Virus record (IMG/VR): IMGVR_UViG_3300020219_000001
From: an uncultured virus (IMG/VR IMGVR_UViG_3300020219_000001)
Lineage: Duplodnaviria > Heunggongvirae > Uroviricota > Caudoviricetes
Strand: one strand, 5' to 3'
Length of the DNA: 20,000 nucleotides
Shown: positions 4,304 to 20,000 of the stretch, piece by piece
Layout of the letters: every line of letters starts with the position of its first letter
Numbering within the stretch: the first letter of the stretch is position 1
Program-made: the position numbers and the translations under genes
The notes under the pieces: model-generated
Databases searched by the model: none
Told to the model about the DNA's origin: nothing
The model's input: the letters and a program-made list of their open reading frames with translations, nothing else

Positions 4304-4307
4304 CACC

Positions 4308-4904: not shown

Positions 4905-5149
4905 TCGTCGCGGCCTTAACGCCTGAGTGCCCTACCTCTTACATGCTCAACGCAGACATGCTTGGTGGCGCTATCGCCCAAGGGCTGAAGGACTGCGAGA
5001 TCAAGGGCGTCACGAAGGACTGTGACATCATCGTGCATCACGACCGTGGACAAGTGCTCCGGCGGCCGAGCGGGCATTACAAGGTGACGATCGACTACTT
5101 CGATCCACACGTCGCCAAGATCAATCGAGAGGGAGGGCTAGCATATTGA
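4901..5149 (+). CDS. hypothetical protein
   Basis: ATGA overlap start, GAGGAG upstream. Confidence 0.65.
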   Translation: MIVAALTPECPTSYMLNADMLGGAIAQGLKDCEIKGVTKDCDIIVHHDRGQVLRRPSGHYKVTIDYFDPHVAKINREGGLAY

Positions 5150-5505
5150 CCGACAGCTACATCCAGATGCCCGCGGTCGAGCTTCAGCGTGTGATTGGAG
5201 ACCGCTTCAGTGAACTCCATAAGCGCCGCGAACAAGCCTGGGAGCGAGTCATCACAAAGTGGACCTCCGACTGGAAGTGGAAGGTCCGCGGGTTCATCTA
5301 CCGATTGATGCGCTGCCGGCTTCCGCAGACCTTCGAGGAGTGCAAGCAGCACTACCGAGACCTCGCACCCTACAACGGCCTCGGCACACCTGACAACCAC
5401 GGTTGGCAGGAACAGGCTGTCCTGGACAGCTTGTATCTGATGGCCTGCCGCGGCCACGACGTTTACGTTTCAGCTTCCGACTACCGATACCTGGTGAAGA
5501 AATAA
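5146..5505 (+). CDS. hypothetical protein
   Basis: TTGA overlap start with GGAGG upstream; stop overlaps the thyX ATG. Confidence 0.7.
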   Translation: MTDSYIQMPAVELQRVIGDRFSELHKRREQAWERVITKWTSDWKWKVRGFIYRLMRCRLPQTFEECKQHYRDLAPYNGLGTPDNHGWQEQAVLDSLYLMACRGHDVYVSASDYRYLVKK

Positions 5506-6500
5506 TGTGCATTGACCAACGCATCATCGACACGCCGCTCCATAGCGAAGAGATGAAGGGACTCCTGAACCTCGTCATCGAGCGGGGCGAAGGCCGCCTC
5601 ATCGAATGCCTGGACGACGGCTTCATCCGCCTGGTGGACAAGATGGGCAGCGACGAGTCCGTGACTCGTGCCGCCCGGGTGAGCTATGGCGCTGGCACTC
5701 GCAAGGTGTCCGACGATCGCAACCTGATCCGGTACCTGATGAGGCACAATCACACGACGCCGTTCGAGATGGTGGAGTTCGTCTTCCACGTGCGGTGCCC
5801 GATTGATGTCTTCCGCCAGTGGATTCGCCACCGTACCGCCAGCGTCAACGAGTACAGTACGCGGTACTCCGAAGCGATCGACAGCATGGCGACGGCCGAG
5901 ACGTGGCGCTCGCAGGCCACGAACAACAAGCAGGGGTCCAACGGCCTGGTCGGCGACGAGTGGCCCGAGGGCTACGAGGTCAAGAGCACCGAGAAGCCTG
6001 GTGAATGGGTGGTCTCGTACCCGAACGGTGTGTGGTACGCATCCGACCGCGAGGCCCCGCCGACGCCGACCGAGTTCCTCACGCAACAGGAGATCGGCAT
6101 CCACAAGCACCTCAAGCGGGTCTACGACGACCGCTTGAAGTTCGGTGTCGCCCGCGAGCAGGCCCGGAAGGACCTGCCCATGAGCAACTACACCGAGGCG
6201 TACTGGAAGTGTGATCTGAAGAACCTGCTCGGCTTCCTGCGCTTACGCATGGACAGCCACGCACAGCTTGAGATTCGCACGTTTGCCAATGCGATGTACG
6301 AATTCATCAAGCCGCACGTGCCCGCCGTGGCTGAAGCCTTCGAGGACTACGTCCTGAACGCGATCACGTTGACTGGGCCGGAGATCGCTGAGCTTTACTC
6401 ACGACTCACCGGTAACGCCGTGGTCGGCAAGGTGATGAGTGACCGTGAGCGACAGGAATTCGTGGCCAAGTGTTCGCGCTTAGGAGTCTCCAATGCTTGA
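5505..6500 (+). CDS. thyX: FAD-dependent thymidylate synthase
   Basis: AARVSY, HTTPFE, RQWIRHRTASVNEYSTRY (ThyX signature), AREQARKDLP, LRMDSHAQLEIR; start at the TAATG overlap. Confidence 0.95.
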   Translation: MCIDQRIIDTPLHSEEMKGLLNLVIERGEGRLIECLDDGFIRLVDKMGSDESVTRAARVSYGAGTRKVSDDRNLIRYLMRHNHTTPFEMVEFVFHVRCPIDVFRQWIRHRTASVNEYSTRYSEAIDSMATAETWRSQATNNKQGSNGLVGDEWPEGYEVKSTEKPGEWVVSYPNGVWYASDREAPPTPTEFLTQQEIGIHKHLKRVYDDRLKFGVAREQARKDLPMSNYTEAYWKCDLKNLLGFLRLRMDSHAQLEIRTFANAMYEFIKPHVPAVAEAFEDYVLNAITLTGPEIAELYSRLTGNAVVGKVMSDRERQEFVAKCSRLGVSNA

Positions 6501-6513
6501 CGACGACCAGCTT

Positions 6514-7083
6514 CTACTCGACATCATGGACCTGTTCGCAGAGGTTGCCTGTTTTCTTGGCCAGCCGAGGAGCCTGGTAACACTCCTCTAACGGGTTGAG
6601 CCTGAGCAGCGAGCCGCGATAGGCCGCTGAGATCAACCCGTGAAGTGTCTTCTGCTCCAAGCGGACCTTCAGCCCACGAACCCGGCCGTCGATGGTGGAC
6701 GTTGAACGATCCATCTCGACGGCTATTTCGTTGATGCCCTTGTCGGCCGCGAGCAGCCGAAGTATTTCGATGTCCTGGTCCGTGAACTCGTTGAAGCACA
6801 CCGGTAGAAGTTGATTGACGGACAGTGCGGCTATACCTGGTAACTCAACTGGGAATAAGAAGGTGCGCGACCAGACCTGGCCTCTCCGCGGTGAGTCCCA
6901 CCTGGAAATGAACTCGACCCGATGACCACGAAGTACGGCATCGGCAAGACGCGCTTCGGCGCTTACGCGATCCTCCTCAACGGCAAACTCTGCCAACTTT
7001 GAGTTGAGCGCGAAGTTGTCCTTGTCCGAGGTCCAGATGATCCGGGCGCGGTGATCCAACAGCTTGATGAAATGACTCTCCAT
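6514..7083 (-). CDS. LuxR-family HTH regulator with PAS-like N-terminal domain
   Basis: FTDQDIEILRLLAADKGINEIAVEMDRSTSTIDGRVRGLKVRL fits the LuxR/GerE HTH; AAGGAG lies upstream of the ATG. PAS assignment is by eye. Confidence 0.75.
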   Translation of the reverse strand: MESHFIKLLDHRARIIWTSDKDNFALNSKLAEFAVEEDRVSAEARLADAVLRGHRVEFISRWDSPRRGQVWSRTFLFPVELPGIAALSVNQLLPVCFNEFTDQDIEILRLLAADKGINEIAVEMDRSTSTIDGRVRGLKVRLEQKTLHGLISAAYRGSLLRLNPLEECYQAPRLAKKTGNLCEQVHDVE

Positions 7084-7409
7084 CGTGGGCCGACTCCTTG
7101 CCTTGAGAGCTTGTGCTTCCGCCGCCTAAAGCAGTGGCTTTGCCCCTTCGGGTGCTAGTGGAAGAATCAAGTCACTCAGGTGGGTGGCTCTGAAACGACC
7201 ATTAACATTTTTAATCTTCGGACGCTCAAGTCCGCTTCGCCCCTTTGAATCTGACGGCATGACTGGCCCGCAATAGCGGCAAAAGCTACCGGTTGTAGAC
7301 ATTGAGCACAAAGGGCCTGACCACAACGGCCCAGGAGGTGGGGTGCTCTCCCACCCTCCCGAGTATTGGTCGAAATCTCGTGGTGGAACCGGACACAGAA
7401 TCCGGAGAA

Positions 7410-7496
7410 TCCCGATCGGGAACAATCCAGGACTTCATGGCCTCTCTAAGGCCCTCCTGGTGCTCGACAACAGCGTCCTGATCCCGATCGGGATCA
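7410..7496. promoter_or_regulatory. pair of palindromes, candidate operators
   Basis: TCCCGATCGGGA (7410-7421) and TGATCCCGATCGGGATCA (7479-7496, perfect 18 bp). Confidence 0.4.
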
Positions 7497-7689
7497 ACGC
7501 TCGTCCGCGGCCGCCGCTCTCGGCGCTGCGATCGCCGGCTCTCGCCCGGCCCCGGCCCACACGACCACATGACACCATCAAACCGGTCTAGTTGGAGTCG
7601 GACCCTCCCGGCTGACCTCCGGCACCCCGGGGCGCTGATCCAGAGACCCCGCCCTAGAACCACTTTATTCGGACCTAGTCACTTCGCGT

Positions 7690-7718
7690 TTGACTTCGTA
7701 GTAACTTGGTACATACTT
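7690..7718 (+). promoter_or_regulatory. repeated sigma70-like promoter P1
   Basis: TTGACT tcgtagtaacttggta CATACT T. Confidence 0.8.
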
Positions 7719-7751
7719 TCATTAGTCAACCAAGGCCACGGGGTAGCAACG

Positions 7752-8147
7752 ATGGACATCGAATACGACAAGCACGGCAACATTAAGCTGCCGCGCTTCC
7801 CGAAGAACTACAAGTTTCGCGGGCCGGAATACTACGGCTGCTGTGGAACTGGACGCCGCCCGACGATCTTGAATTGTGGTGGAACGGAACGCTTCATTGT
7901 CGGTGCCGAGTCCGACGTTGAGCAGCTACGCCTTGAGGCGTACCGATCCAAGAAGCGAACCATCCGCAAGGGCAACGCCGTGGTCTACGTCTTTAAGACT
8001 CGGCAACCGGCCGTCGCGAAGTGGACGGAACTGTGCAAGGCCGTGACGAAGTGGAACGAAGATACCCGCAACAAACACAAGGCCGACCTGGAAGCCGCGC
8101 GTCGCGGCGATACAGCGGCGGCCGGCCGACTTGGAGACTACTGCTAA
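7752..8147 (+). CDS. hypothetical basic protein
   Basis: Start MDIEYD follows P1 and the leader ACGGGGTAGCAACG. Confidence 0.75.
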   Translation: MDIEYDKHGNIKLPRFPKNYKFRGPEYYGCCGTGRRPTILNCGGTERFIVGAESDVEQLRLEAYRSKKRTIRKGNAVVYVFKTRQPAVAKWTELCKAVTKWNEDTRNKHKADLEAARRGDTAAAGRLGDYC

Positions 8148-8374
8148 TGGTCACGAAGGAACAAGCCGCCGCCGCCATCCGAGTCGTGCAAGCCGTCGCG
8201 GAAGCCATCCGCGAAGCCGGGGAGATTCCCGCCGGCCACTTGTACGCCTTGATGATGAACGTCACTGATCTTGCCGGATTCGACCGCATTGTGGGCTTGC
8301 TGATCGACGCTGGCGTCGTGCTGAAGAAAGGGGACCTCCTGGTATGGCAACAGCCACAACCAAGCTGTGGGTAA
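8147..8374 (+). CDS. hypothetical protein, possibly winged-helix
   Basis: TAATG overlap; three predicted helices then a beta hairpin (LIDAGVVLKKGDLLVW). Confidence 0.6.
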   Translation: MVTKEQAAAAIRVVQAVAEAIREAGEIPAGHLYALMMNVTDLAGFDRIVGLLIDAGVVLKKGDLLVWQQPQPSCG

Positions 8375-8616
8375 GCGTTGGGCAGGCTGGCGACTACGAA
8401 CCGTTCGATACGCTGGCCGACGCCGCCAAGTACATGAACAGCCTTAGCGTCGGCAAGCCGACCGGGTGGAAGTTCGGCGGGTTTGATACGCCGAACTTCT
8501 GGGGCAACGACTACGTTTCGATCTATCACGGCGACGACGTGGGCGAATACGTCGAGCACCTCAGCGACGACGAACAATGCGAGATTTACAACCGCCTGGA
8601 GGAAGTCTACCTATGA
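8344..8616 (+). CDS. hypothetical acidic protein
   Basis: 90 aa ORF ending at an ATGA overlap. Confidence 0.7.
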   Translation: MATATTKLWVSVGQAGDYEPFDTLADAAKYMNSLSVGKPTGWKFGGFDTPNFWGNDYVSIYHGDDVGEYVEHLSDDEQCEIYNRLEEVYL

Positions 8617-8945
8617 CGAAGGCCGCCCTCAACGCGCTGGCGTACACGTACCTAACTGGCGTGATGCCGAAGTACCTGCATTCGCACACGTGGCGAGTCG
8701 TTTACAACTGCATTGAAAGCCGTGGCTTGCGGTACACGCTGAAGCCGGAATGTGTCGCGATGGTTGCCGACCATCCGCAAGTGCTGAAGCTTCGCGAACT
8801 GGAGACGGACGGGTGGAAGATTGCCAGCGACCTAGGTCGCCGCAAGGTTCGCGTTGGTATCGACCTCTATCGGGACTTGCCCGATGGCAAATACCAAAAG
8901 ACGTGCGTCTATCCCGATGGAAAGCAAGGCCGAGTCTGGGGCTAG
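8613..8945 (+). CDS. hypothetical protein
   Basis: Start MTKAAL at an ATGA overlap with GGAGG upstream. Confidence 0.7.
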   Translation: MTKAALNALAYTYLTGVMPKYLHSHTWRVVYNCIESRGLRYTLKPECVAMVADHPQVLKLRELETDGWKIASDLGRRKVRVGIDLYRDLPDGKYQKTCVYPDGKQGRVWG

Positions 8946-8965
8946 AAAAATCTTCGCGACTCGAT

Positions 8966-8994
8966 TTGACTTCCTAGTTACTTGATACATACTT
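8966..8994 (+). promoter_or_regulatory. repeated promoter P2
   Basis: TTGACT tcctagttacttgata CATACT T. Confidence 0.85.
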
Positions 8995-9035
8995 ACATTG
9001 TGACGGGACCGAACGGCAACACGGGAAACGCAACA

Positions 9036-9689
9036 ATGAGCAAGCAAGTAACGAAGACGGTCTACACGTTCAAGGAACTGATCGAACTAGGGAACGCTAA
9101 GGCCATCGAGAAAGCCCGCCAGTGGTTGATCGAAGGCGCGACCGATCATGGCTGGCACGAATACACGATCGACATGTGGAAGCAAGCCCTCGCTTCGATC
9201 GGCATCGAAGACGCCGAGATTAGCTTCTCCGGCTTCTGGTCGCAAGGCGACGGAGCAAGCTTCACCGGCAAGGTGGATGCCGAGAAGTTGATTAAGTTCT
9301 TCGCGGCCGACATCAAGGCGACGGAAGGCATCGAAGTGGAAGATGGCAAGGAAGCTTTCCAGCCGTGGCTGGTCGGCAAGATCGGTGGCAAGCGGACCGT
9401 GGATTACTCGGTCCTGGACACCGAAGACCTTGTCATCGAACTGAACCGGATTAGCCACCGCTACTCGCACGTGAACACGGTCGAGTTGGTTGCCTACATG
9501 GATCGGCACGAGAAAAGCGAAGTGGTCAAGGACTTCCGTGAGGATGCCGAGTCACTCCGCAAGGAACTCTGCCGCGAGATTTACAAGTCACTGGAGACGG
9601 AATACGAGTGCCTCACTAGCGACGAATCGCTGATCGAAAACAGCGAAGCCAACGACTACTTCTTTGACGAATTCGGGAGAAGCGAATAA
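9036..9689 (+). CDS. conserved phage/ICE protein with SGFWSQGDGA motif
   Basis: VYTFKEL...SGFWSQGDGASF...EYECLTSDE...ANDYFF. From memory this family is often auto-annotated as an antitoxin; function unverified. Confidence 0.7.
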   Translation: MSKQVTKTVYTFKELIELGNAKAIEKARQWLIEGATDHGWHEYTIDMWKQALASIGIEDAEISFSGFWSQGDGASFTGKVDAEKLIKFFAADIKATEGIEVEDGKEAFQPWLVGKIGGKRTVDYSVLDTEDLVIELNRISHRYSHVNTVELVAYMDRHEKSEVVKDFREDAESLRKELCREIYKSLETEYECLTSDESLIENSEANDYFFDEFGRSE

Positions 9690-9691
9690 CC

Positions 9692-10051
9692 ATGTTTGAC
9701 CCAAACGACTTAGGCCAATTCACCGGCAGCGAACAGTGGTACCGCCACTTTCTTCGCGGCCTGATCTACACGGACGGTATTCACTACCTGGTCGAGAATG
9801 GCGCGGCCTGGTTGGTCGATGCAATCGCCAGCCATCAGATGAGCAAGAAGCTTGTCGGACCTCTCCGCGACTTCCAACTGTGGGAACTCAAGGTCAAGAA
9901 CGGCAAGGCCGTGCTGACTTGCAAGGCGGATAGCGACCAGAAGCCCGTTATCACGCAACGCATCGAGTACACCGACTTCCCGATGGAACACATCACGATC
10001 TACGTCGAGCGCGGTGAGCACTTGACGATGATGCTTCCTTCGGAGCGATAG
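9692..10051 (+). CDS. conserved hypothetical protein, DUF6876-like
   Basis: LGQFTGSEQWYRH, YTDG, AWLVDAIASHQ, FQLWELKV and IEYTDFP motifs. Confidence 0.7.
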   Translation: MFDPNDLGQFTGSEQWYRHFLRGLIYTDGIHYLVENGAAWLVDAIASHQMSKKLVGPLRDFQLWELKVKNGKAVLTCKADSDQKPVITQRIEYTDFPMEHITIYVERGEHLTMMLPSER

Positions 10052-10064
10052 CATTCCCGTTGCC

Positions 10065-10101
10065 GCCCGGGCGGTTGAAACTCGTAGTTTCCCGCCCGGG
10101 C
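10065..10101 (+). other. intergenic GC-rich hairpin
   Basis: GCCCGGGCGG-tt-GAAAC-tcgta-GTTTC-CCGCCCGGGC, no U tract. Confidence 0.6.
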
Positions 10102-10123
10102 ACCCGTACACAAGGAACTCCGC

Positions 10124-10756
10124 ATGACCATCAAAGATCAAACCCGCGACTACGTCCGCACGTGGCACTCGCACGGTACGCTGTTCCGCCTAACGGCCAC
10201 GGTACGCCACGACGATCGGTGCGGCAACGGACACAACACGTTCAGCGTGACGGGGGTTATCGACCGGAAGTCTGGCCGTCACTGGCTAGATCATTCGGGC
10301 GGTTGCATTCACGACGACATCGCGAAGCACGTTCCGGAACTCGCGACCTACCTGAAGTGGCACCTTTGTTCCACCGATGGCCCGATGCACTACATTGCGA
10401 ACACGGTCTATCAGGCGGGCGACCGGGACCACTGGGGACTTCGCAAGGGGGAGTTTCGCCAGTCCGTGGATAAGGAGACTGGTAGGCTGTTGTGGGAACT
10501 TGACATCGAGAATGTAAGCCAACGTGTGGCTTGCAACCATCAACCGGACGCCGTGCAAATTGATTGGAAGCCGATCGGTCTAACGGGAGAGGGCAAGGAG
10601 CGCGACCTCAAGGCCGCACGGGAGTCGGCTATCTGGCCCGATGCGACCGACGAAGAACTCACGGCGGCCGGACTGGAGGAACGCCTTGCGGCCCGGCTGC
10701 CGGCGCTGCTGGCCGAATTCCAAGCGGCCGTTGAGAGTCTCAACCTGAATTTCTGA
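10124..10756 (+). CDS. conserved phage hypothetical protein
   Basis: AAGGA upstream; Cys/His motifs DDRCGNGHNTFSVTG, GGCIHDDI and KWHLCSTDGPMHY. Confidence 0.8.
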   Translation: MTIKDQTRDYVRTWHSHGTLFRLTATVRHDDRCGNGHNTFSVTGVIDRKSGRHWLDHSGGCIHDDIAKHVPELATYLKWHLCSTDGPMHYIANTVYQAGDRDHWGLRKGEFRQSVDKETGRLLWELDIENVSQRVACNHQPDAVQIDWKPIGLTGEGKERDLKAARESAIWPDATDEELTAAGLEERLAARLPALLAEFQAAVESLNLNF

Positions 10757-10773
10757 TACAGCCCCTCCCGGGC

Positions 10774-10806
10774 AGGCCCACACTCCCCGTGGGCCTATCA
10801 TTTTCT
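10774..10806 (+). terminator. probable intrinsic terminator before P3
   Basis: AGGCCCAC-actcccc-GTGGGCCT followed by ATCATTTTCT. Confidence 0.5.
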
Positions 10807-10809
10807 CGT

Positions 10810-10838
10810 TTGACTTGCTAGTTACTTGGTACATACTT
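10810..10838 (+). promoter_or_regulatory. repeated promoter P3
   Basis: TTGACT tgctagttacttggta CATACT T. Confidence 0.85.
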
Positions 10839-10874
10839 GCATTGTAAGGCAAGCACACCACGGGAACAGCAACA

Positions 10875-11222
10875 ATGACGAAGCTTGACGAATTCACCCG
10901 GGCCTACATCACGGCCGCCTTGTGGGCCGAAACCGGCAGCGACGATGAACCGCTTGACGACAACTACACGGTTCACGACATCAATGCCGAGACGTTGGCC
11001 CGGATGGTCGAAGACTGCCGCGACTTCCAAGCGAAGTACGGCGAACTGATCCAAGGCATGGAAGCACAAGCCGGACACGACTTCTGGCTGACTCGCCGTG
11101 GCCACGGCTGTGGCTTCTGGGATGGTGACTGGGCCGAACTCGGCGACGAACTGACGAAGGCTGCCGAGTCTTACGGGGACATGGAACTGGACGATTACGA
11201 AGGGGTGGTCTATGCAATCTAG
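10875..11222 (+). CDS. conserved phage hypothetical acidic protein
   Basis: AYITAALW...AGHDFWLTRRGHGCGFWD motif; follows the P3 leader. Confidence 0.8.
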   Translation: MTKLDEFTRAYITAALWAETGSDDEPLDDNYTVHDINAETLARMVEDCRDFQAKYGELIQGMEAQAGHDFWLTRRGHGCGFWDGDWAELGDELTKAAESYGDMELDDYEGVVYAI

Positions 11223-11589
11223 CTTCAACGAAGTGAAGTTCACCGACGCCGACGTGGTCAACCTGGACGACTGGATTCCGGACGGGGAATACAACCCGCA
11301 CAAGGTACGGCCGTTTCTGCTGCATGACCACGGCTTCGTCGTGTGCGTCGTGTTCGCCAGCAACTTGCAAGATGCGTTAGACGCCGCTGTGGACGCCGAC
11401 AAGATGGACCGCTTCCTGATCGCGGAAGCCGACTACGGCGACTACGACATTGAGGGAAACGCCGACGGCCGGGTGACCTTCCTAGGCAACGCCAGCGAGC
11501 CGTTCGACATCGAGTCACTCGACTACATCGAACTGCCGAACCCGAAACGATCCTTCGTCGCACAATTCAACAACCGGGGTGACCAATGA
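11212..11589 (+). CDS. hypothetical acidic protein
   Basis: Coupled 125 aa ORF. Confidence 0.7.
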   Translation: MQSSFNEVKFTDADVVNLDDWIPDGEYNPHKVRPFLLHDHGFVVCVVFASNLQDALDAAVDADKMDRFLIAEADYGDYDIEGNADGRVTFLGNASEPFDIESLDYIELPNPKRSFVAQFNNRGDQ

Positions 11590-11963
11590 GCGCCTACATC
11601 TACGCTGCTGCCATGTACTGCGAAGCGTGCGGCGAGGAACTCTGCAACACGCTACCGAAACCCGCGAACCTGGACGAACGCACCTACGATAGCGGTGACT
11701 ATCCCAAAGGCCCTTACGCCAACGGTGGAGGAGAATCGGATTGCCCGGAACACTGCGCGAACTGCCATTGCTGTTTGAACAACGAACTGACCGAAGCCGG
11801 AGTCCAGTACGTCATCGAGACCCTGGACCAGGCAATGGTCCGCGGCGCGACGACAGACGTGGAACGGGGGTGGGCCGCCCAACTCCGCGACTACTACCTC
11901 AGCAACGAACAACAACTGACCCTGGACTGTTACCTGGAGTGCTTTGCATCATGCTCGAAGTGA
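11586..11963 (+). CDS. CxxC-containing hypothetical protein
   Basis: CEAC...DSGDYPKGP...CPEHCANC. Confidence 0.7.
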   Translation: MSAYIYAAAMYCEACGEELCNTLPKPANLDERTYDSGDYPKGPYANGGGESDCPEHCANCHCCLNNELTEAGVQYVIETLDQAMVRGATTDVERGWAAQLRDYYLSNEQQLTLDCYLECFASCSK

Positions 11964-12181
11964 TCCGCGACTACTTCCGACGCCGCAAGCTACGCAAGCT
12001 TCTGGCCGATCCTCGCTTTGAATTCCGCAAGTCCGAAACGCTGGCGAAAGCCACGGGCACCGGCGGTGACAAACTGGTCGATCTACTCAAGTCGGTCGGC
12101 GCACGGCCGGCCTACCGCAACAGCAATCTCTGGGGACCGACCGATAAGGTCGGCCTGAAGCCGCGACGGCGGCGCGACTAA
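11951..12181 (+). CDS. hypothetical basic protein
   Basis: Start MLEVIR at 11951 with GGAG upstream. Confidence 0.65.
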   Translation: MLEVIRDYFRRRKLRKLLADPRFEFRKSETLAKATGTGGDKLVDLLKSVGARPAYRNSNLWGPTDKVGLKPRRRRD

Positions 12182-12214
12182 CAAGGGGAAGCTTACTCGT
12201 GTCGCTAACCTCAA

Positions 12215-12343
12215 GGGCAAGGCCGGGAGATGAGAGAATGTAACCTGTAAAGCCGTGGGGCTATGTACCATCACCAATACTGAACTGAAGAATCCGCAAG
12301 ACTGAAATGGTGAAGATCGGACCCCGTAACAAGGAACTTGCCC
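12215..12343 (+). ncRNA. candidate structured RNA
   Basis: Nested complementary pairs GGGCAAG/CTTGCCC, GGGG/CCCC and TCACCA/TGGTGA in a 200-nt gap with no convincing ORF. Confidence 0.35.
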
Positions 12344-12383
12344 ACATGAATTAACAAAGCACAACACAACAAAAATTCTTCAA

Positions 12384-12419
12384 CGGCCGGGGTGAACCAC
12401 ACCCCGGCCGCAGTTTTTT
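12384..12419 (+). terminator. intrinsic terminator before P4
   Basis: CGGCCGGGGTG-aacca-CACCCCGGCCG then CAGTTTTTT. Confidence 0.8.
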
Positions 12420-12424
12420 GGTAT

Positions 12425-12453
12425 TTGACTTTCTAGTTACTTGATACATACTT
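12425..12453 (+). promoter_or_regulatory. repeated promoter P4
   Basis: TTGACT ttctagttacttgata CATACT T. Confidence 0.85.
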
Positions 12454-12484
12454 GTATCAGGCAACAACAACGGGGAACCAAAAC

Positions 12485-13297
12485 ATGTGCGGACTGTTCG
12501 GTGCGGTAGGCAAGTCGATCAACCCGGGAACCATTCGGGCGCTGGCCCTGATTAACCGTGAGCGAGGGACCGACTCGCTTGGCTTCTTTGACAACAGCGG
12601 TAAGCTGGTCAAGAGTGGCAAAGACCCGATGGACGCCCTGAACAACCGGGGTATCTCCAAGTTCATCGACCACACCGGCCGCTGGTTTCTGGCTGGCCAC
12701 ACTCGCTACGCAACCCGTGGTCGCGTGTGCAAGCGGAACGCCCACCCGTTCCACTACGGCAACATTGTGGGATCGCACAACGGCCACGTGACGGCCCCGA
12801 AGGGCTACCAGGTGGATAGCGAGTATCTGTTCGACCAGCTTGACTTGGCGGACGGCGACTACCAGCGGGCTTTCGCCGATGTCCAGGGCTACTGGGCGCT
12901 GACCTGGTTCGACGGCGATGCGTTCTACGCTCAGGCGCACAAGAACTCGCTGTGGTTCGGCCTGGTAGGCGATACGCTCTACTACTCATCGGACCGTGGC
13001 CACTTGCTGGCGTGCGTCGGTCGAGTGGAGTGCTTTGAACTGACCGGCGGCCGCACGCTGCAATTCACCCCGAAGGGCTACACCGAACTCCCGGCCTTCG
13101 TCCCTGCGAAGCAAACCAAGCAGACCTCGCTGTGGGGTGAGCACGACGACAAGAACTGGTTTTACGACGAATGGGACAAGGCCGCGATGGACCTTGGTTA
13201 TCTCGACATTGAAGACCTCATGTTTACGAAGGGCTACCGCGACAAGCACGACGCCTACGAATTCATCGAAAGCTTCTGGACGAAGTTGACTTCCTAG
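12485..13297 (+). CDS. class II (Ntn) glutamine amidotransferase
   Basis: N-terminal MCGLFG (catalytic Cys2), RGTDSLG, GHTRYAT, NAHPF, HNG, VDSE. Confidence 0.9.
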   Translation: MCGLFGAVGKSINPGTIRALALINRERGTDSLGFFDNSGKLVKSGKDPMDALNNRGISKFIDHTGRWFLAGHTRYATRGRVCKRNAHPFHYGNIVGSHNGHVTAPKGYQVDSEYLFDQLDLADGDYQRAFADVQGYWALTWFDGDAFYAQAHKNSLWFGLVGDTLYYSSDRGHLLACVGRVECFELTGGRTLQFTPKGYTELPAFVPAKQTKQTSLWGEHDDKNWFYDEWDKAAMDLGYLDIEDLMFTKGYRDKHDAYEFIESFWTKLTS

Positions 13298-13314
13298 TTT
13301 CTTGATACATACTT
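13286..13314 (+). promoter_or_regulatory. repeated promoter P5 (overlaps the GATase stop)
   Basis: TTGACT tcctagtttcttgata CATACT T. Confidence 0.85.
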
Positions 13315-13319
13315 GGAGT

Positions 13320-13526
13320 ATGAGCAACTCCAATGGCTGGAACGAAACGACTGGACAAACCGACCACACCGCTTTGAAGCGGTACGTCAAGCAACTCCGC
13401 GACCCGGGCTACGTGGCCCGTGACGCCACCGAGTCGGCCCGCCTCGACCCACACGGATCGAAGGCCGGTTACTACCTTGACCTGGTCAACTACATCGGGA
13501 TGCAACAATCGGGGAACCTGCGATGA
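13320..13526 (+). CDS. hypothetical protein, possibly leaderless
   Basis: ATG begins 7 nt after the P5 -10 hexamer. Confidence 0.65.
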   Translation: MSNSNGWNETTGQTDHTALKRYVKQLRDPGYVARDATESARLDPHGSKAGYYLDLVNYIGMQQSGNLR

Positions 13527-13852
13527 AATACCGAGCCTACGTCCAGGACTTTTCGGCCGTGATCGGTCGCAACCCCGAACTCGCCGAACGGGGGAATCCG
13601 AACGGCGACATCGTCGGAACGAAGTACATCGTTATGCTGGAGCGCGAAGACGGCAAGCGACTAGCTGGCCCTGAAGTGGAGGAACGCGAAGCCGCCGAGA
13701 AGCGAGCCGCTGCAATTCAGCGGTCGCTCGACCGCAACTGGAATCCGGAGAATGCTTTCCGGGAAGTCCCACCTGCCTACGGCAGTATTCGCTACATCGA
13801 AGTGGACTACGAAGTGAATGACGCAATCTACGAACGGAACAACGATGCTTAA
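13523..13852 (+). CDS. hypothetical protein
   Basis: ATGA overlap; contains a PAYGS motif. Confidence 0.7.
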   Translation: MKYRAYVQDFSAVIGRNPELAERGNPNGDIVGTKYIVMLEREDGKRLAGPEVEEREAAEKRAAAIQRSLDRNWNPENAFREVPPAYGSIRYIEVDYEVNDAIYERNNDA

Positions 13853-14078
13853 AGCACTGTACCAACTGACCCTGGAGGTGGAACCGGCCGGCAGCTACGC
13901 CAGCGTGATGGAATCGCGTACCGTGGAAGCCGAGACCGTGGCGCAGGCGCTTGCCGCCGTATGCGACTGGCCCGCGACCGCCGACAACCTGGAGTTAGGC
14001 GGGATGGCCGTTGACCCAACAACCGGACCGCTGCTGAAACGCTGCTGGTTCGCCACACGACTGAGGTACCTACTGTGA
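13845..14078 (+). CDS. hypothetical protein
   Basis: Start MLKALY with an 8-nt overlap. Confidence 0.6.
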   Translation: MLKALYQLTLEVEPAGSYASVMESRTVEAETVAQALAAVCDWPATADNLELGGMAVDPTTGPLLKRCWFATRLRYLL

Positions 14079-14383
14079 TTCCGATCGAAGACATCAAGAA
14101 GATCGCGGCCGGAGAGGAAGTGACCTTCCTGGTTAAGCCGGACCCGCCGGAGCACGTCATCAAGCGTGTGACCGCGCTGGCGGAAGTGGCCCACGGGAAT
14201 TACTGGATGCGATGCGAAGAAAGTTCCGGGCGGCTGGGCCGCTGGGGAATCATCCAGATTGCGGAATTCTCCTGGAGGCGCAAGGTGCAACTGATGGTAG
14301 TCGGCCGTGGCTACTCGCACCCGGCCGCCGAACTCGACGGAAAGAAAATCGAACTCATCCACATTCCGGAACCACCTCAGTGA
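14075..14383 (+). CDS. hypothetical protein
   Basis: GTGA overlap, GAGGT upstream. Confidence 0.7.
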   Translation: MIPIEDIKKIAAGEEVTFLVKPDPPEHVIKRVTALAEVAHGNYWMRCEESSGRLGRWGIIQIAEFSWRRKVQLMVVGRGYSHPAAELDGKKIELIHIPEPPQ

Positions 14384-14559
14384 TTATCACCGCTGAAGCC
14401 GTCGCAGACATCATCGCGGACGCCGTCGCCAACACCTACGTGGATGGCCCGGACTTCTACGCAATCGAAGACCTCGCCAACCGATTCGCCGCACACCTGG
14501 AGCAGACCAGCCCGGGCTTCGACCGTGAGGCGTTCCTGGAGAAGTGTGAACTCACATGA
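14380..14559 (+). CDS. small hypothetical protein
   Basis: GTGA overlap; C-terminal PGFDREAFLEKC resembles the NPxFDxxxFxxAC ending of many small phage proteins. Confidence 0.65.
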   Translation: MIITAEAVADIIADAVANTYVDGPDFYAIEDLANRFAAHLEQTSPGFDREAFLEKCELT

Positions 14560-14774
14560 AGCAATACATCCGCCACCAACACAAGCACCACACGGAACGC
14601 TTGCACGCCGACGCTCAGGTACTCATAACACGAATGCGGACCCTGATGGAAACAATCGAGCGGGGTGGCTCGATTAACTCGCTAGGGGAAATTCAGGGGA
14701 TGGCCCTGGACATCGACCGCCGCTGCGCGCAGATCGGAATTCTTCGCGAACTTCTTGACTTCCAAGAAACTTGA
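14556..14774 (+). CDS. hypothetical protein
   Basis: ATGA overlap; the 3' end lies inside P6. Confidence 0.65.
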   Translation: MKQYIRHQHKHHTERLHADAQVLITRMRTLMETIERGGSINSLGEIQGMALDIDRRCAQIGILRELLDFQET

Positions 14775-14783
14775 TACATACTT
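14755..14783 (+). promoter_or_regulatory. repeated promoter P6
   Basis: TTGACT tccaagaaacttgata CATACT T. Confidence 0.85.
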
Positions 14784-14822
14784 GCTTGTGTAACGGGAAC
14801 GCAACCAACGGGAACACAAGCA

Positions 14823-15077
14823 ATGCAGATCAAGAAACTGAAGAAAGCCGCCAACCCCCTCCTCACCCTTCCGCTTGGCTACTACTGGATTCGCACCCAG
14901 CACACAGACAAGCACGTCGGGACCGTTTGGTCGCCGTGGCATCCGATCCACTTAACCGAGAATCACCAAGGTCCGGGACTGCCGGTCCGCTGGGTCAAGG
15001 AATTCCACGGATCGACGCTGGCTGCCGCCTACGACAAGGCCGTCCTGGAAGTCCGCAAGCTGGAGGTGCCCGCCTAA
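14823..15077 (+). CDS. hypothetical protein
   Basis: Follows P6 and the ACGGGAACACAAGCA leader. Confidence 0.7.
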   Translation: MQIKKLKKAANPLLTLPLGYYWIRTQHTDKHVGTVWSPWHPIHLTENHQGPGLPVRWVKEFHGSTLAAAYDKAVLEVRKLEVPA

Positions 15078-15409
15078 TGATGCACGAACTATTCATCCTT
15101 GGCTTGCCGTGCGGTGAACGCAAGGATATGACAGAAGCCGACGCCGCCGCCCGGAACCGCGACCTGTACCTAGCAGGCAAACGTAGCCAAGGATGGAAGC
15201 CGGTCACGCCGGAACCGCGACCAGAGGTAGTGGTCCCGAAGCCGGTGGCCGCCACGGTGCCGAAGCCGCCGAAGCCTGAACGCAACGAGGAACTCGAAGC
15301 CGCGCTTGTGGCGCTTGGCTTCAAGAAGGGGGACGCCAAACGCCGTGCGGCATCGGCCCCGGCTGGAACACTTCAGGAACAGCTTGCGGGAGTCTTCGCG
15401 AAACCATGA
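15077..15409 (+). CDS. protein with C-terminal RuvA domain III-like (UBA-like) module
   Basis: TAATG overlap with GGAGG upstream; Pro-rich linker then EELEAALVALGFKKGDAKRRA...TLQEQL. Confidence 0.6.
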   Translation: MMHELFILGLPCGERKDMTEADAAARNRDLYLAGKRSQGWKPVTPEPRPEVVVPKPVAATVPKPPKPERNEELEAALVALGFKKGDAKRRAASAPAGTLQEQLAGVFAKP

Positions 15410-15762
15410 AACTGCATAGCAACAAAGCCGAGACGGACGATAAGCGGCGCATGTTCCACTACATGTACCGGAGCGCCCAACGCTACGCCAACCGGCACAA
15501 GCAACTGGCCCGCAAGCTGAAAGCCCAACGCGCTCACCTTGACCAGCAACGTGAGGAACTCGGCGCAACGGGACTGCCGGGCTTGCTGAGTTACCCTTCG
15601 TATCTGACGAAGCACAAGCGGAAGTACAACGTCCACTTTCAGAAGATCGAAGCCGAGCAAGCCCGACACGACGTGGAACGTCGCGAACGCGAAGCGCAAG
15701 AGCGTGCGGCAATCAAGGCGGAAGCCCGGATCGAACTGGCATCGGAGTTAATCACCGGATGA
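15406..15762 (+). CDS. hypothetical coiled-coil protein
   Basis: Coupled, charged helical ORF. Confidence 0.65.
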   Translation: MKLHSNKAETDDKRRMFHYMYRSAQRYANRHKQLARKLKAQRAHLDQQREELGATGLPGLLSYPSYLTKHKRKYNVHFQKIEAEQARHDVERREREAQERAAIKAEARIELASELITG

Positions 15763-16085
15763 ACAAACCCAACGTCGAAGATGCACGCGAAGCGTTTGAC
15801 GCCCAGATTGATCGGTGGATACTCGGCGAGGTTACACCCTACGCCCAGTCGCTACTGGACAAAGCCGCCAAGCGAATGCACCGACACCGGTTGGAATTCT
15901 TTCAAGGCATGGGGCATTTCGGCTTCAGCATCGACGGCGACGTGGTCCACAAACTGAACGATGCGTTCAACTACCCAAACGAACACAACCATAGGTACGC
16001 GCGAGCGTTCCCGGAACTAGAAGAGCTACACCAACTGGCGTTTGACATCGAAGACAAGTTCAACCGCGAACTGGGTGATATGTGA
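15759..16085 (+). CDS. hypothetical protein
   Basis: ATGA overlap. Confidence 0.7.
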   Translation: MNKPNVEDAREAFDAQIDRWILGEVTPYAQSLLDKAAKRMHRHRLEFFQGMGHFGFSIDGDVVHKLNDAFNYPNEHNHRYARAFPELEELHQLAFDIEDKFNRELGDM

Positions 16086-16342
16086 CCGTGGTCTACATCT
16101 GTACCAACCCGGCCGTTCAATCAGGCGACCTTGACGCCGCCTATCGGGCGGCCGCGCTTGTGCTGAAGCGGTACGGCTATGAATGCGAAGCCGATCCGAA
16201 GTGGACCCACGGCAAGTACCATCGGTACGCCCGCGTCTTCAATCATCTGGCCGTGGAACACCGCGAACTTGACGAACTCGTGCAAGTGGCAATGAGTGAA
16301 GCCGCCGTGGCGTACTACCACGTGCTTAGGTTGACGGCATAA
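16082..16342 (+). CDS. hypothetical protein
   Basis: GTGA overlap; last gene of the + strand run. Confidence 0.65.
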   Translation: MTVVYICTNPAVQSGDLDAAYRAAALVLKRYGYECEADPKWTHGKYHRYARVFNHLAVEHRELDELVQVAMSEAAVAYYHVLRLTA

Positions 16343-16540
16343 CGCGCTTACCCCTTCGCGCGCTTAGGAGGACGGGTACGGGCGCTTGCGCTTACAAAGT
16401 CTCGAACACTCCGGCACACCCGGCGGCCGCCACGTCGCGGCGGTTAAGTAGGCAACCTTGCTGAAAATACCGCCGCGACAAGGGTGACCTTTAATGGCCC
16501 GGCCGTCCTAGGCCGATGATGAACTTGGCTGTGGCTCAGT

Positions 16541-16587
16541 GAAGCCTAGGCAAGGGGACTGGAACCCCTGCCTAGGCTTCTTTCGTT
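16541..16587 (+). terminator. intrinsic terminator
   Basis: GAAGCCTAGGCA-a-GGGG-actggaa-CCCC-TGCCTAGGCTTC then TTTCGTT. Confidence 0.65.
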
Positions 16588-16749
16588 GGTGGACGCCTCC
16601 CTGGAGACCTCGAACCCACGGACGCAACAGCGGGGCAACCAGGGGCCTTCTCCGTGGTGCCCGGCTTGCAGCCCGATGGTGGCCACGGCCGCCGATCGAC
16701 GCCGCCGTGCCGGCGCTGACCAGGTGACCGACCGTCCCCGCCGCCGACC

Positions 16750-16779
16750 TGTCAGAAAAAGTAGCTTGTTTTTCTGACA
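16750..16779. repeat. perfect 11-8-11 inverted repeat
   Basis: TGTCAGAAAAA-gtagcttg-TTTTTCTGACA. Confidence 0.85.
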
Positions 16780-17051
16780 CCTGGACGCATGATGGCAGCA
16801 CCTAAACCGCCTAGCAGCATGGACTTAGCCATATTGACGGTAGTTTGATGGTTCGGCCCGCCGGTCCAGAATGGTAACCGGTTCGGTGAGAGGTGGATGG
16901 CCGCCAAGGTGAGGCTCGATCCGGCCCGGCCGCGGCCGAGAATTTTGGCGACAAACCGAATTTGACTCGGTTAGAAATCCAGCCCGGTTACACCACTTAT
17001 AGGGTTTGCACACGGTTAGAAATCGAGGCCCCGGCTGGACCCCGGGGGGTC

Positions 17052-17240
17052 GGCACAACCGCTACAACCGCTACAGCCTCGACAATCGGTACAATCCACA
17101 CAATCGGTAAAATCCGAACATCCGGCACAACCGGACCTGGCGGTAGGACCGGAACATTCGGAGCATCCGGAGCATCCAGGATAACCGGAACCCGCCGCGG
17201 AATCGGAACAATCGTCAAAATCGGTACTGACGGTCGGGAT
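17052..17240. repeat. degenerate 9-bp tandem repeat (about 21 units)
   Basis: GGCACAACC GCTACAACC GCTACAGCC TCGACAATC GGTACAATC ...; consensus approximately GGNACAAYC. Confidence 0.75.
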
Positions 17241-17287
17241 CGCTACAACCCGCGCGATGATCCCAACCGTCAAAACCGATTCAAGCC

Positions 17288-17797
17288 GCAAGCGCCGCGA
17301 CGGCCGCTGATCGGCAGCGACTCGCGAGCGACGGCCGCTGATCGGCAGCGACTCGCGACCAGGTGAGCACCTCGACCGTCGCGGGAAGATCGGCAGCAAG
17401 CGCCGACGGCCGCGACCAGGTGAGCGCCGACGGCCGCTGATCTTCCGCACCTCGACCAGGGCGCAGCACCTCGACCAGGTGAGCGCCGCGACGGCCGCGA
17501 CCAGGTGAGCACCTCGACCAGCGACGGCCGCTGATCTTCCCTCGACCGTCGCGAGCACCTCGACCAGGTGAGCGCCGACGGCCGCTGATCTTCCGCACCT
17601 CGACCAGGGCGCAGCACCTCGACCAGGGCGCAGCACCTCGACCGTCGCGGGGAAGATCGGCAGCAAGCGCCGACGGCCGCGACCAGGTGAGCACCTCGAC
17701 CAGCGACGGCCGCGACCAGGTGAGCGCCGACGGCCGCCGCTGATCGGCAGCGACTCGCGACCAGGGCGCAGCACCTCGACCAGGTGAGCGCCGCGAC
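17288..17797. repeat. mosaic repeat array 1
   Basis: Shuffled exact words GCACCTCGACC, AGGTGA, AGGGCGCA, CGACGGCCGC, TGATCTTCC, GGAAGATCGGCAGC, GACTCGCGA. Confidence 0.9.
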
Positions 17798-17801
17798 TAG
17801 C

Positions 17802-17990
17802 TTAGATAGTGGCAAGATCGACCCTCGCGCGTTTGGCATTTTCGGCACGACTCCACAATAGAGCATAAGCGCCACATTCGGAAATGAGCCGGCGCGTCGC
17901 GCCGCAAAATCGGCCGCGCTTGAATAACGGGCGCATCTCGTTTTTCAGGTAGAACACTCCCCGCCGTAAATCCCGTTCGATGTCCGACAT
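17802..17990 (-). CDS. small basic hypothetical protein
   Basis: ATG overlaps the amidoligase stop (TAATG); GGAGG upstream on the minus strand. Confidence 0.55.
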   Translation of the reverse strand: MSDIERDLRRGVFYLKNEMRPLFKRGRFCGATRRLISECGAYALLWSRAENAKRARVDLATI

Positions 17991-19294
17991 TAGGCAACCT
18001 CCTCACAGATGGAATAATTGGTCCCAAACTTACAGGCCCGCTGACGGTAAAATTCCGTCAATTCATCATCGCCCCAAATCTCGGCAAGCTTGGCAAACCA
18101 GGCACGATCGTCAAGACGCCACAAGGCGCACACTTCGTCACAGGTGAGCTTGCTGAAGTAATCGACAAACTTGACATGCGCGACAACCCAGTTGCAAACC
18201 TTACCACCGTCAAGAGTCGCAGTATGCAGACGAACCTCAAAGGTGTTGTGAACGGCATAGGCCGCAAAATTCACCCAACGGTAACGAGGCTGAGAAGCGG
18301 CCCAACCCTCCCATTCGGAATCTTCCATCGTTTGCATATCATCGGCAGACCAGTCAAATTGCTTGCAGAAGCGATTTTCCCTACGATCCCGATGGACGAA
18401 AGAACCCCACACTTTGGCGCTCATGGCATAAGCGGCACAGACCGCACGCTTGGCTTCGTCGGAAAGATCGGCAGCACCGATATGAAGGTGAAAACCGCAC
18501 CGACTGTCAACGTCGAAAGAACTGGCGTTGTCGCAAAAATCGGAAATGGCCGTCAAACCCCGATCGCCGCGCAGAACCTCAGAGACGAACTCTTTCCCCG
18601 AGATGCTACCATCCTCACAGGCGGTGAAATGGGTCTGGCCGTCAAGATCGGCAATATCGTCGCATTGCGAAGTTTCAAGCTCGACGCCGAATGTGCGGAG
18701 GCTGCCGATTTTAGCGAATGTATCGTCGTCGCGGAATCGGAACTCGCAAGCTTCGCACTCACCATCGGAACTAGGCATACAATCGTCACAATAGCAACAA
18801 CCGTGGCGCTCGTGATAGTTCATGTTGTCACGACTCACCCAGTCGTTACAACCCTCACAGCAGTCATAGTGCTCACTATGGCACTCGTTGCAATAATCGC
18901 TACCATCCTGCCGGACGATGTCATCGGTAACGAAGTAATTATTGCAACATTCGCACTGCGTGAATTTATCGTCAAAACAGGACTCACACCACTTTTCGCC
19001 ACGATACCTGCGACCGTCATGTTCCTTGCAATCGTCAAGATCGCCCACCTCACCACAATCGGTGCAGGTGAAGTAATCGTCACTGCACGACTCACAGATA
19101 CATTCGCCATCTTTGTTAAGATAGTCAAGATCGTCAGAGTCGCCACAATCGGCACAGACGGCATCTTCCGCAGCTTCCGTCACAACCGGCCCCATCGGAG
19201 CGACCGGAGCCATCGGCACTTGACCGACCAACTCGTACAATCCGAACAACTCACCGAATGTGCGTTGTAAGTATGTTTTGCAAGTTTGGCACAT
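17990..19294 (-). CDS. putative amidoligase (COOH-NH2 ligase, Amidoligase_2-like) with N-terminal CxxC zinc-ribbon repeats
   Basis: TFGVELET, EDGSI..EFVS.VL.G, CGFHLHIG, RY.WVN and TFEVRLH.ATL motifs. Start placed at MCQTCK by the shared ACGGG-N10-ATG leader. Confidence 0.85.
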   Translation of the reverse strand: MCQTCKTYLQRTFGELFGLYELVGQVPMAPVAPMGPVVTEAAEDAVCADCGDSDDLDYLNKDGECICESCSDDYFTCTDCGEVGDLDDCKEHDGRRYRGEKWCESCFDDKFTQCECCNNYFVTDDIVRQDGSDYCNECHSEHYDCCEGCNDWVSRDNMNYHERHGCCYCDDCMPSSDGECEACEFRFRDDDTFAKIGSLRTFGVELETSQCDDIADLDGQTHFTACEDGSISGKEFVSEVLRGDRGLTAISDFCDNASSFDVDSRCGFHLHIGAADLSDEAKRAVCAAYAMSAKVWGSFVHRDRRENRFCKQFDWSADDMQTMEDSEWEGWAASQPRYRWVNFAAYAVHNTFEVRLHTATLDGGKVCNWVVAHVKFVDYFSKLTCDEVCALWRLDDRAWFAKLAEIWGDDELTEFYRQRACKFGTNYSICEEVA

Positions 19295-19338
19295 TGTCGC
19301 GACTCCCGTTGCGTTGCGTCCCGTTGCCTTACACTTAC

Positions 19339-19395
19339 AATCTAGGTCGCATCTATTAACTTGCAAGTTACTAGATGCAAGAAACTAGCAAGTTA
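19339..19395 (-). promoter_or_regulatory. variant promoter P7 with two operator-like boxes
   Basis: Minus strand TTGCAA-N16-TAGATT then 5 nt and TGTAAGGCAA, as in P3; boxes CAAGTTACTAG (19364-19374) and CAAGAAACTAG (19378-19388). Confidence 0.6.
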
Positions 19396-19444
19396 GCGCC
19401 TAAGTCTATGCGCCGCTAGGGAATAAAACTTCCGAAATAGTTAG

Positions 19445-20000
19445 CCGATCGGCCGCGCCGACGGCCGCTAGATAGGTGAATGGTCGCGAGCACCTCGACC
19501 AGGTGAGCGCCGACGGCCGCTGATCTTCCGCACCTCGACCAGCGACGGCCGCTGATCGGCCGCGACCAGGTGAGCACCTCGACCGTCGCGGGAAGATCGG
19601 CAGCGACTCGCGACCAGGGCGCAGCACCTCGACCAGGTGAGCGCCGACGGCCGCGACCAGGTGAGCACCTCGACCAGCGACGGCCGCTGATCTTCCCTCG
19701 ACCGTCGCGAGCACCTCGACCAGGGCGCAGCACCTCGACCGTCGCGGGGAAGATCGGCAGCGACTCGCGACCAGGTGAGCACCTCGACCAGGGCGCAGCA
19801 CCTCGACCAGGTGAGCACCTCGACCAGCGACGGCCGCTGATCTTCCCTCGACCGTCGCGGGGAAGATCGGCCGCGACCAGGTGAGCGCCGACGGCCGCTG
19901 ATCTTCCGCACCTCGACCAGCGACGGCCGCTGATCGGCCGCGACCAGGTGAGCACCTCGACCGTCGCGGGAAGATCGGCAGCGACTCGCGACCAGGGCGC
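19445..20000. repeat. mosaic repeat array 2 (runs off the window)
   Basis: Same vocabulary and orientation as array 1; 19645-19724 is identical to 17489-17568. Confidence 0.9.

Follow-up and report, generated by a model that had tools for sequence, protein, structure and literature searches.

What process could account for phage DNA in which a few short sequences recur exactly, in an order that keeps changing, and what could such DNA be for? This question is raised by positions 17288 to 20000 of the window, by which we mean the whole 20,000-nt stretch analyzed here, taken from IMG/VR record IMGVR_UViG_3300020219_000001, an uncultured Caudoviricetes virus. Two arrays of such repeated words, array 1 (17288..17797, + strand) and array 2 (19445..20000, + strand, ended by the window edge), stand on either side of a small leftward cassette with an amidoligase gene. 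An initial annotation had described the arrays as exact words in variable order, generated by microhomology-driven template switching or recombination, and had offered several possible roles. We were interested in establishing how the arrays are built, whether they occur at other loci and in other samples, and what their junctions and surroundings tell about them. With a confidence somewhat short of even, we favor reading them as dispersed, one-directional, non-coding mosaic minisatellites acting as homology tracts for cassette exchange. The DNA covered in total, that is the window and a related contig, G001, comes to about 61 kb of a genome estimated at about 125 kb.

Results

A small vocabulary of exact words in variable order

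The arrays were cut at every CGAC and only interior words were counted. This gave 61 words of 7-37 nt from both arrays, 30 of them in array 1; array 2 has the same vocabulary and orientation, with regular words from position 19485. Only 20 of the 61 are distinct, and 13 recurring types make up 54 of them. The seven singletons are variants of recurring words, with a small insertion, an extra G in a G-run or another junction, and, as first described, there are no unique spacers. Counted as k-mers, the 1056 positions of the two arrays use only 109 different 5-mers, and 1044 positions only 230 different 11-mers. Their G+C content is 73% in array 1 and 71% in array 2, versus 58% in the gene region.

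The word GCACCTCGACC occurs 22 times, always on the + strand and with 17 to 93 nt between successive copies, where 0.03 copies were expected (200 shuffles); the approximate counts of 10 and 12 in the initial annotation are the exact counts for arrays 1 and 2. There are 16 exact copies of CGACCAGGTGAGC and none with one or two mismatches inside the arrays, in agreement with the few point changes reported, and an 80-nt block (17489-17568 and 19645-19724) is indeed 100% identical between the arrays. A fixed period was found to be absent, as claimed: Tandem Repeats Finder gave no array-wide period and local ones only (31 nt ×2, 19 nt ×2.6, 17 nt ×3.4 and 150 nt ×1.9).

Self-complementary words are frequent, namely the CACCT-N5-AGGTG dyad (six times), GGAAGATC (six) and GATCTTCC (seven), and the counts of shorter words (CGGCCG 22, TCGCGA 9, GATC 19, CCAGG 24) bear out the richness in such palindromes, in GATC and in CCAGG noted before. 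Polarity is strict: the + strand of the arrays has 63 CGAC against 9 GTCG, and 24 CCAGG against no CCTGG. The hexamer AGGTGA has 17 copies in the 1.07 kb of the arrays versus 7 in the 18.2 kb outside. Prefixes are nested, CGACCAG within a word that starts CGACCAGGTGAGC and CGACGGCCG within one that starts CGACGGCCGCTGATC, and the words have common suffixes as well; inside the arrays CGACCAG is always followed by CGACGGCCG.

Many exact repeats of 24-127 nt are present inside the arrays. One repeat, of 127-130 nt, joins 19493-19622 to the end of the window (19871-20000). It is doubtful because one of its pieces, 19513-19577, which the window holds twice, has a depth of 16.3 versus 13.4 for the unique flank; the assembler may have passed through this stretch a second time in the last ~130 nt of the window, or these may represent a minority form.

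Array words at other loci and in other samples

Independent samples were provided by Logan contigs (k=31), from microbial-mat runs including X1 and X5 and from soil run X9; in these, order can be checked directly only on pieces of up to about 70 nt. About 90% of the words sampled from 16300-20000 were present in eight microbial-mat runs. In two mat runs the unique flanks were found with 0 differences at a depth of about 13-15, array pieces of 56-70 nt were also found with 0 differences, and a piece held twice by the window had about twice the depth (29 vs 13.4). Other pieces had lower depths, 3 and 7.4 for 17298-17357, where the flanks had 13.4 and 14.8, and 9.2 and 8.7 for 17708-17771. The two flanks of array 1 had depths of 13.4 and 13.4 in X1 and of 14.8 and 13.3 in X5.

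Furthermore, a joint leading from 19376 through 34 nt to the array words at 17743 is present both in X1 (depth 13.6) and in X5 (depth 15), which is the phage's own depth. Hence one or more additional arrays exist in this genome next to a copy of the palindromic element, positions 19341-19376 of the window being repeated there. In X5, a record of 910 nt (record 21) has array words flanking a diverged copy of the promoter region, an arrangement not seen in X1. In the soil run the left flank of array 2 is exact, a piece of the amidoligase gene differs at 6 of 151 positions, and one contig (X9 record 22, 142 nt) has the words of the window in a different order.

Only one IMG/VR record with the array vocabulary was found, the 41.5-kb contig G001, rated 33% complete; scans of IMG/VR with two further words and with the promoter motif described below returned G001 only, or nothing. 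G001 starts inside an array, and its bases 5-64 are an exact walk through 14-mers of the window in an order absent from the window. A border word of the TAGATAGGTGAATGGTCGCGA type (19468..19489, + strand) lies at the left edge of array 2, and its 17-nt core has two copies near the outer edge of the G001 array. The outer zone of that array amplifies other units, a 14-nt unit ×3, a 7-nt piece of the promoter spacer ×4 and a 30-nt unit ×2, and AGGTGA is kept in these otherwise different words. No proteins are common to G001 and the window. Judged by the G+C content (57.8% vs 58.7%), the promoter motif and the palindrome avoidance that they have in common, G001 represents a different region of this phage or of a very close one.

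Recombinant junctions and local amplification

In a four-gamete test (two left by two right flanking bases around each core), sixteen shared cores of 4-24 nt showed every one of the four left-right flank combinations. This recombinant pattern is the one expected from repeated cutting and rejoining in short shared cores. Because exchange within shared cores makes no new short junctions, words can stay exact while their order drifts, and no special enzyme is needed. The arrays resemble what recurrent recombination, or slippage, between short homologies would leave behind.

Random walks on the word graph, with a memory of k=7-13, produced an inter-array block of at least 80 nt in 5, 20, 17 and 41 of 100 trials. 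Such walks thus reproduce the 80-nt shared block, and this block is no special sign of recent copying. The 127-nt terminal repeat was obtained in 0 of 100 walks at each memory length and, this repeat excepted, the arrays are statistically close to random walks on the word graph. The recombinant junctions, the random walks and the other orders in the lineage lend support to the general kind of microhomology origin proposed; its template-switching part is indistinguishable by sequence from recombination or slippage.

Units other than the common words have been amplified locally (31 nt ×2 and 19 nt ×2.6 in the window, 14 nt ×3 and 7 nt ×4 in G001). Together with decayed relics beside a fresh array and junctions at sub-genomic depth, this points to a locally active repeat-generating process. 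Local amplification and relics fit a mutational process better than one fixed binding site.

The cassette between the arrays

The amidoligase gene (17990..19294, − strand) codes for a Cys-rich N-terminal half and an amidoligase domain (PF12224, E 1.9e-12); its open reading frame (ORF) extends to 19366, with a likely ATG at 19294. It is followed by an Arg-rich, basic 62-aa ORF (17802..17990, − strand), whose ATG overlaps the amidoligase stop and whose end lies 5 nt from array 1. This ORF has no family match in the Pfam and PHROGs scans; it may be a protein that binds nucleic acids. Upstream of the leftward cassette, a 30-nt near-perfect palindrome (19349..19378) lies within a degenerate copy of the phage promoter motif. 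The cassette, flanked by two direct arrays, is on the strand opposite to the neighboring genes, and its G+C content of 52%, versus 58% for the rest of the window, is the lowest in the window. With this G+C content, opposite strand and own promoter-like element, it looks foreign. A role of the arrays as cassette borders is suggested by these surroundings, since a leftward low-G+C gene pair with its own palindrome lies between two direct arrays, the palindrome-array junction recurs elsewhere and X5 has a variant of it.

The N-terminal half of the amidoligase-family protein, about 245 aa, is full of CxxC pairs. Its nearest phage matches, in Porphyromonas and Arthrobacter phages, have about 28% identity and cover the C-terminal amidoligase domain only. 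Protein searches with the amidoligase and with the amidotransferase found no relatives.

Known classes of element that the arrays do not match

The arrays are non-coding. Only 18 of the 61 word lengths are multiples of 3, so that the frame jumps at most junctions, and all three minus frames are open because the array vocabulary has no stop triplets on that strand. A known RNA was also discarded, since no Rfam family reached its gathering score in the window or in L001 and no tRNAs were found. Folding is little better than that of shuffles, with z of −2.41 for DNA (+ strand) and −2.69 for RNA (− strand), and no RNA runs are listed among the sequencing runs with array words.

A host repeat family or prophage copy does not explain the arrays either: the 19-mer GCACCTCGACCAGGTGAGC is found at 44 metagenome and 32 genome loci, each an array-free single match, and the one match near a contig end (L054) lies in ordinary sequence. 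A clustered regularly interspaced short palindromic repeats (CRISPR) array is discarded by the lack of unique spacers, 20 distinct words filling both arrays, and a simple tandem repeat or classical minisatellite by the lack of an array-wide period, with GCACCTCGACC gaps of 17-93 nt.

Iteron and centromere arrays, such as those of the P1 incC-incA and F sopC type, have one binding unit of ~17-43 bp at a regular, helically phased spacing. Here there is no single unit and no helical phase common to both arrays; the phase statistic at 10.5 nt is near random in 7 of 8 motif-array pairs and never consistent between arrays. Neither Rep nor ParA nor ParB turned up when 35 and 34 window ORFs were scanned against Pfam and PHROGs, the bracketed gene being the amidoligase. 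The partition-like protein-loading array suggested in the initial annotation is consequently not supported in its regular form, with no unit, no consistent phasing and no ParB among the ORFs scanned. The search for a nearby primase-polymerase, reverse transcriptase or ParB-like gene was likewise negative, these and Rep being absent from the 35 window ORFs and 42 G001 ORFs scanned. Telomere-like templated repeats are disfavored by the lack of reverse transcriptase and primase-polymerase in the ~61 kb covered and by the internal position of array 1, with genes on both sides.

The stable palindromes of repetitive extragenic palindromic (REP) sequences and of bacterial interspersed mosaic elements (BIMEs) were not recovered either, the arrays having a single orientation (22 of 22 GCACCTCGACC on the + strand) and fold z values of only −2.41 and −2.69. 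What the arrays do have is the variable-order module organization of BIMEs and of the Neisseria intergenic mosaic elements (NIMEs), at the two window arrays, in G001 and at one or more mat loci, with orders that differ. Finally, the suggestion of a decoy for restriction or methylation enzymes is disfavored, and the arrays are probably not decoys: their palindromes CGGCCG, TCGCGA and CGATCG are among the commonest, non-avoided hexamers of the phage, outside the 35 of 64 palindromic hexamers that it avoids.

Discussion

Proposed homology tracts for cassette exchange

In the reading that we favor, a small ancestral set of GC-rich units would have been the starting stock. Slipped-strand mispairing, unequal exchange and gene conversion at the shared cores of 4-24 nt would keep breaking and rejoining these units, and words would stay exact while their order and number drifted within the population and between strains. 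In this reading the arrays, scattered over several places of the accessory-gene region of a large tailed phage, adjoin a shared palindromic promoter/operator element and bracket small cassettes with promoters of their own. As long homology tracts, they could allow these cassettes to be gained, lost or exchanged. We infer both the reshuffling mechanism and the cassette-exchange role from the junctions and surroundings of the arrays.

Several observations weigh against this proposal. Neither in G001 nor in a soil strain with 6 of 151 differences in its amidoligase gene piece do the words depart from the exact form seen in the window, and such exactness across strains could equally mean selection on the words, for instance as protein sites. 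The contigs gave no sign of a form in which the cassette is excised or missing, and nothing connects a recombination enzyme with the arrays, the serine recombinase of G001 being 1.5 kb from its array. The independent samples consist of Logan k=31 contigs, in which order is read to ~70 nt and in bulk rather than per molecule, and coverage noise may explain why some pieces have a lower depth. Furthermore, the DNA covered is only ~61 kb of the estimated ~125-kb genome.

Other explanations

It is possible, if on the unlikely side, that the arrays load a protein, with words or sub-words such as CACCT-N5-AGGTG, YAGGTGAGC and the GATC words binding a phage or host protein. The arrays would then be enhancers, origins or partition/condensation sites, and shuffling would be tolerated since only the density of sites counts. 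The exact words without point-mutated copies, common to contigs and strains, would be expected from such sites, as would the concentration of AGGTGA in the arrays (17 in 1.07 kb against 7 in 18.2 kb outside) and its persistence in the outer words of G001. The arrays also adjoin promoter-like palindromes and exist in several dispersed copies, and baculovirus homologous regions (hrs), according to PMC6669502, are dispersed palindrome arrays that bind IE-1 and serve as origins and enhancers. However, the arrays are not built on one unit, contain the full dyad just six times and do not agree with each other in phasing. Genes for Rep, ParB or another evident partner are lacking in the vicinity, and the outer zone of G001 amplifies quite different words, a promoter fragment included.

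Unlikely as well, in our judgment, is that the arrays are the phage counterpart of these viral homologous regions, an exact word code read by a phage or host protein. If this were true, exactness would be kept by selection or template rewriting, and a grammar such as CGACCAG followed by CGACGGCCG would be functional and not historical. The arrays would be multi-copy loading sites driving the replication, transcription or packaging of neighboring cassettes. The hrs resemble the arrays in being several dispersed arrays of related repeats with imperfect palindromes in a large dsDNA virus. They differ in that hrs (PMC6669502) consist of regular units, each with a 30-bp palindrome, and are AT-rich, with demonstrated IE-1 binding and origin and enhancer activity, whereas the phage arrays have no regular unit and are not AT-rich.

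A genome-end or packaging region is improbable. This would place the arrays at or close to the borders of a long direct terminal repeat or the packaging start, where they would arise from end processing or serve it. G001 starts and the window ends inside an array, but contigs break at any long repeat, so that contig ends prove nothing. The terminase of G001 is nearest, at ~24% identity, to those of SPO1-like Bacillus phages and Thermus phages. SPO1-like Bacillus phages package their genomes with long terminal repeats, with which a note in the records of phages JL and Shanette agrees. The depth read from contigs, on the other hand, has no two-fold step across array 1 (13.4/13.4 and 14.8/13.3). 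The T7 left end (NC_001604) resembles the arrays in its one-directional anchor word at irregular spacing, with 11 copies of one 7-nt word in the first 420 nt and gaps of 13-115 nt, but its repetitiveness is much lower, with 0.80-0.95 distinct 8-mers per 200 nt where the arrays have 0.48-0.61. The T5 terminal repeat, as described in bioRxiv 10.1101/866236 (Davison), has three untranslated repeat regions between pre-early genes, and thus, like the arrays, non-coding repeats among small early genes, one of them split by an inserted gene. These T7 and T5 regions lie in or beside terminal repeats, and their order is kept between relatives, the T5 regions being fixed in this respect, unlike the varied and far more repetitive arrays described here.

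Very improbable is templated writing, in which a reverse transcriptase, a primase-polymerase or a slipping replicase would recopy a short master template, realigning at CGAC or other short overlaps, so that every word would be freshly exact, as with telomerase at irregular yeast telomeres. It would account for exact, CGAC-initial words with nested prefixes and for the polarity of 63 CGAC against 9 GTCG. Common suffixes as well as prefixes mean, however, that no copying direction can be derived; neither enzyme was found among the 35 window and 42 G001 ORFs, the arrays have an internal position in the window, between genes, and no master template is present in the 61 kb covered. Least credible of these explanations is an assembler's walk through the tangled graph of a simple tandem repeat or strain mixture, for which the many exact 24-127-nt repeats, the sub-genomic depth at some junction pieces and a 127-130-nt terminal repeat beyond all 100 simulated walks, with its piece at single-copy depth, could be cited, but junction cores of 4-20 nt are shorter than any assembler word size, so that the reads themselves must contain the differing flanks, independent k=31 assemblies of two samples give 56-70-nt pieces with 0 differences and ~2× depth for the twice-held piece, and an independent IMG/VR contig has a 60-nt walk of the same words.

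Known mosaic repeats and significance

BIMEs of E. coli and NIMEs of Neisseria are non-coding, mosaic intergenic arrays, dispersed, often found at the borders of variable blocks and thought to promote recombination. The phage arrays are like them in having a small set of modules in variable combinations at several loci. They are unlike BIMEs and REP sequences, which have strong hairpins in alternating orientation, in being one-directional, weakly folding and made of linkerless words of 7-37 nt. We consequently class the arrays, from their composition, as a kind of mosaic repeat array, apparently new in being in a phage with an unusually small and exact vocabulary. A literature search gave no description of such arrays in phages, which does not prove that none exists, and blastn of array 1 with the low-complexity filter on gave no phage match and one chance 65-nt match, to a Streptomyces plasmid gene.

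Among phages, a comparison is offered by the promoter-early stem-loop (PeSL) cassettes of T4-type phages, in which small non-essential genes lying between copies of the element are shuffled, deleted or circularized by recombination (Arbiol et al. 2010, PMC2839356). Both systems would have a repeated promoter-bearing element beside small accessory genes, here a promoter-like palindrome with an array and a cassette of deviant G+C. A PeSL is one promoter plus one terminator hairpin and not a 0.5-kb array of shuffled words, and the likeness is drawn from comparing sequences.

The DNA elements behind the plasticity of phage accessory regions have been described in few model groups only. The arrays would be a very legible new example, each junction being readable as a recombination event, and a natural system for gauging the shortest homology that a phage recombination or replication apparatus can use. 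They also offer a test of whether dispersed phage repeats are cassette-exchange sites, protein landing pads or both. A practical warning follows as well: such arrays break short-read assemblies of this phage lineage, and their long-range order is unreliable.

Other features of the window and of G001

Small rightward genes, with phage-like content, form a long run up to position 16342. It includes genes for an HD phosphohydrolase (1411-1989), a ThyX-type thymidylate synthase (5403-6500), a class-II glutamine amidotransferase-like protein (12452-13297) and a DUF6876 protein. The highly conserved promoter-like motif, TTGACT then CTAGTTnCTTGrTACATACT, precedes six rightward genes of the window (+ strand; 7698, 8974, 10818, 12433, 13294 and 14763), where 0.00 copies were expected. 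In G001 it lies directly upstream of rightward genes at about 1827, 2594, 6384 and 11668 of L084. The glutamine amidotransferase-like gene, ThyX, the HD hydrolase and the amidoligase all lie within the window, and these four genes may indicate a module for nucleotide or base modification.

The layout is different from 16343 onward, where a non-coding stretch with a relic, a 9-nt tract, array 1, the leftward cassette, the palindrome region and array 2 follow one another up to the window end. The relic (16680..16750, + strand) is a degenerate stretch resembling array words; the degenerate relative announced near 16685-16740 is thus visible in the sequence, with a lone 13-mer match, at 16717, that has two mismatches. 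The degenerate, 9-nt-periodic tract (17040..17287), directly left of array 1, is a decayed repeat or a small Cys-rich ORF on the minus strand. Its minus strand would read as a Cys-rich peptide of CSG/DCx triplets with a weak match to phrog_15341 (E 1.6e-4), and its plus strand as a Gly-x-x-like repeat. The counterpart non-coding region of G001 also has a small Cys-rich minus-strand ORF (L084:633-860).

The gene content of G001 comprises a serine recombinase and terminase, portal, capsid and tail genes. The serine recombinase (PF00239, 245 aa; L084:1843-2580, + strand) is the first gene after the array and 1.8 kb of palindrome-rich non-coding DNA. A 104-aa protein made nearly entirely of Asp/Glu runs (L084:15992-16306, − strand) is the only other low-complexity stretch in the contig. 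A neighboring protein of 429 aa has matches at six distant loci, with 33-34% identity, where the low-complexity stretches are all coding.

Palindrome avoidance is extreme in this phage. Over 59.4 kb (window 1-16600 and 17800-19440; G001 301-41452), 35 of the 64 palindromic hexamers are entirely absent, GTCGAC, CTCGAG, TTCGAA, GACGTC and ATCGAT among them, several with 20-31 copies expected. GATC, CGCG, GGCC and TCGA are not avoided, and GCGC is present at about half of expectation. This avoidance of hexamers suggests a host rich in type II restriction systems.

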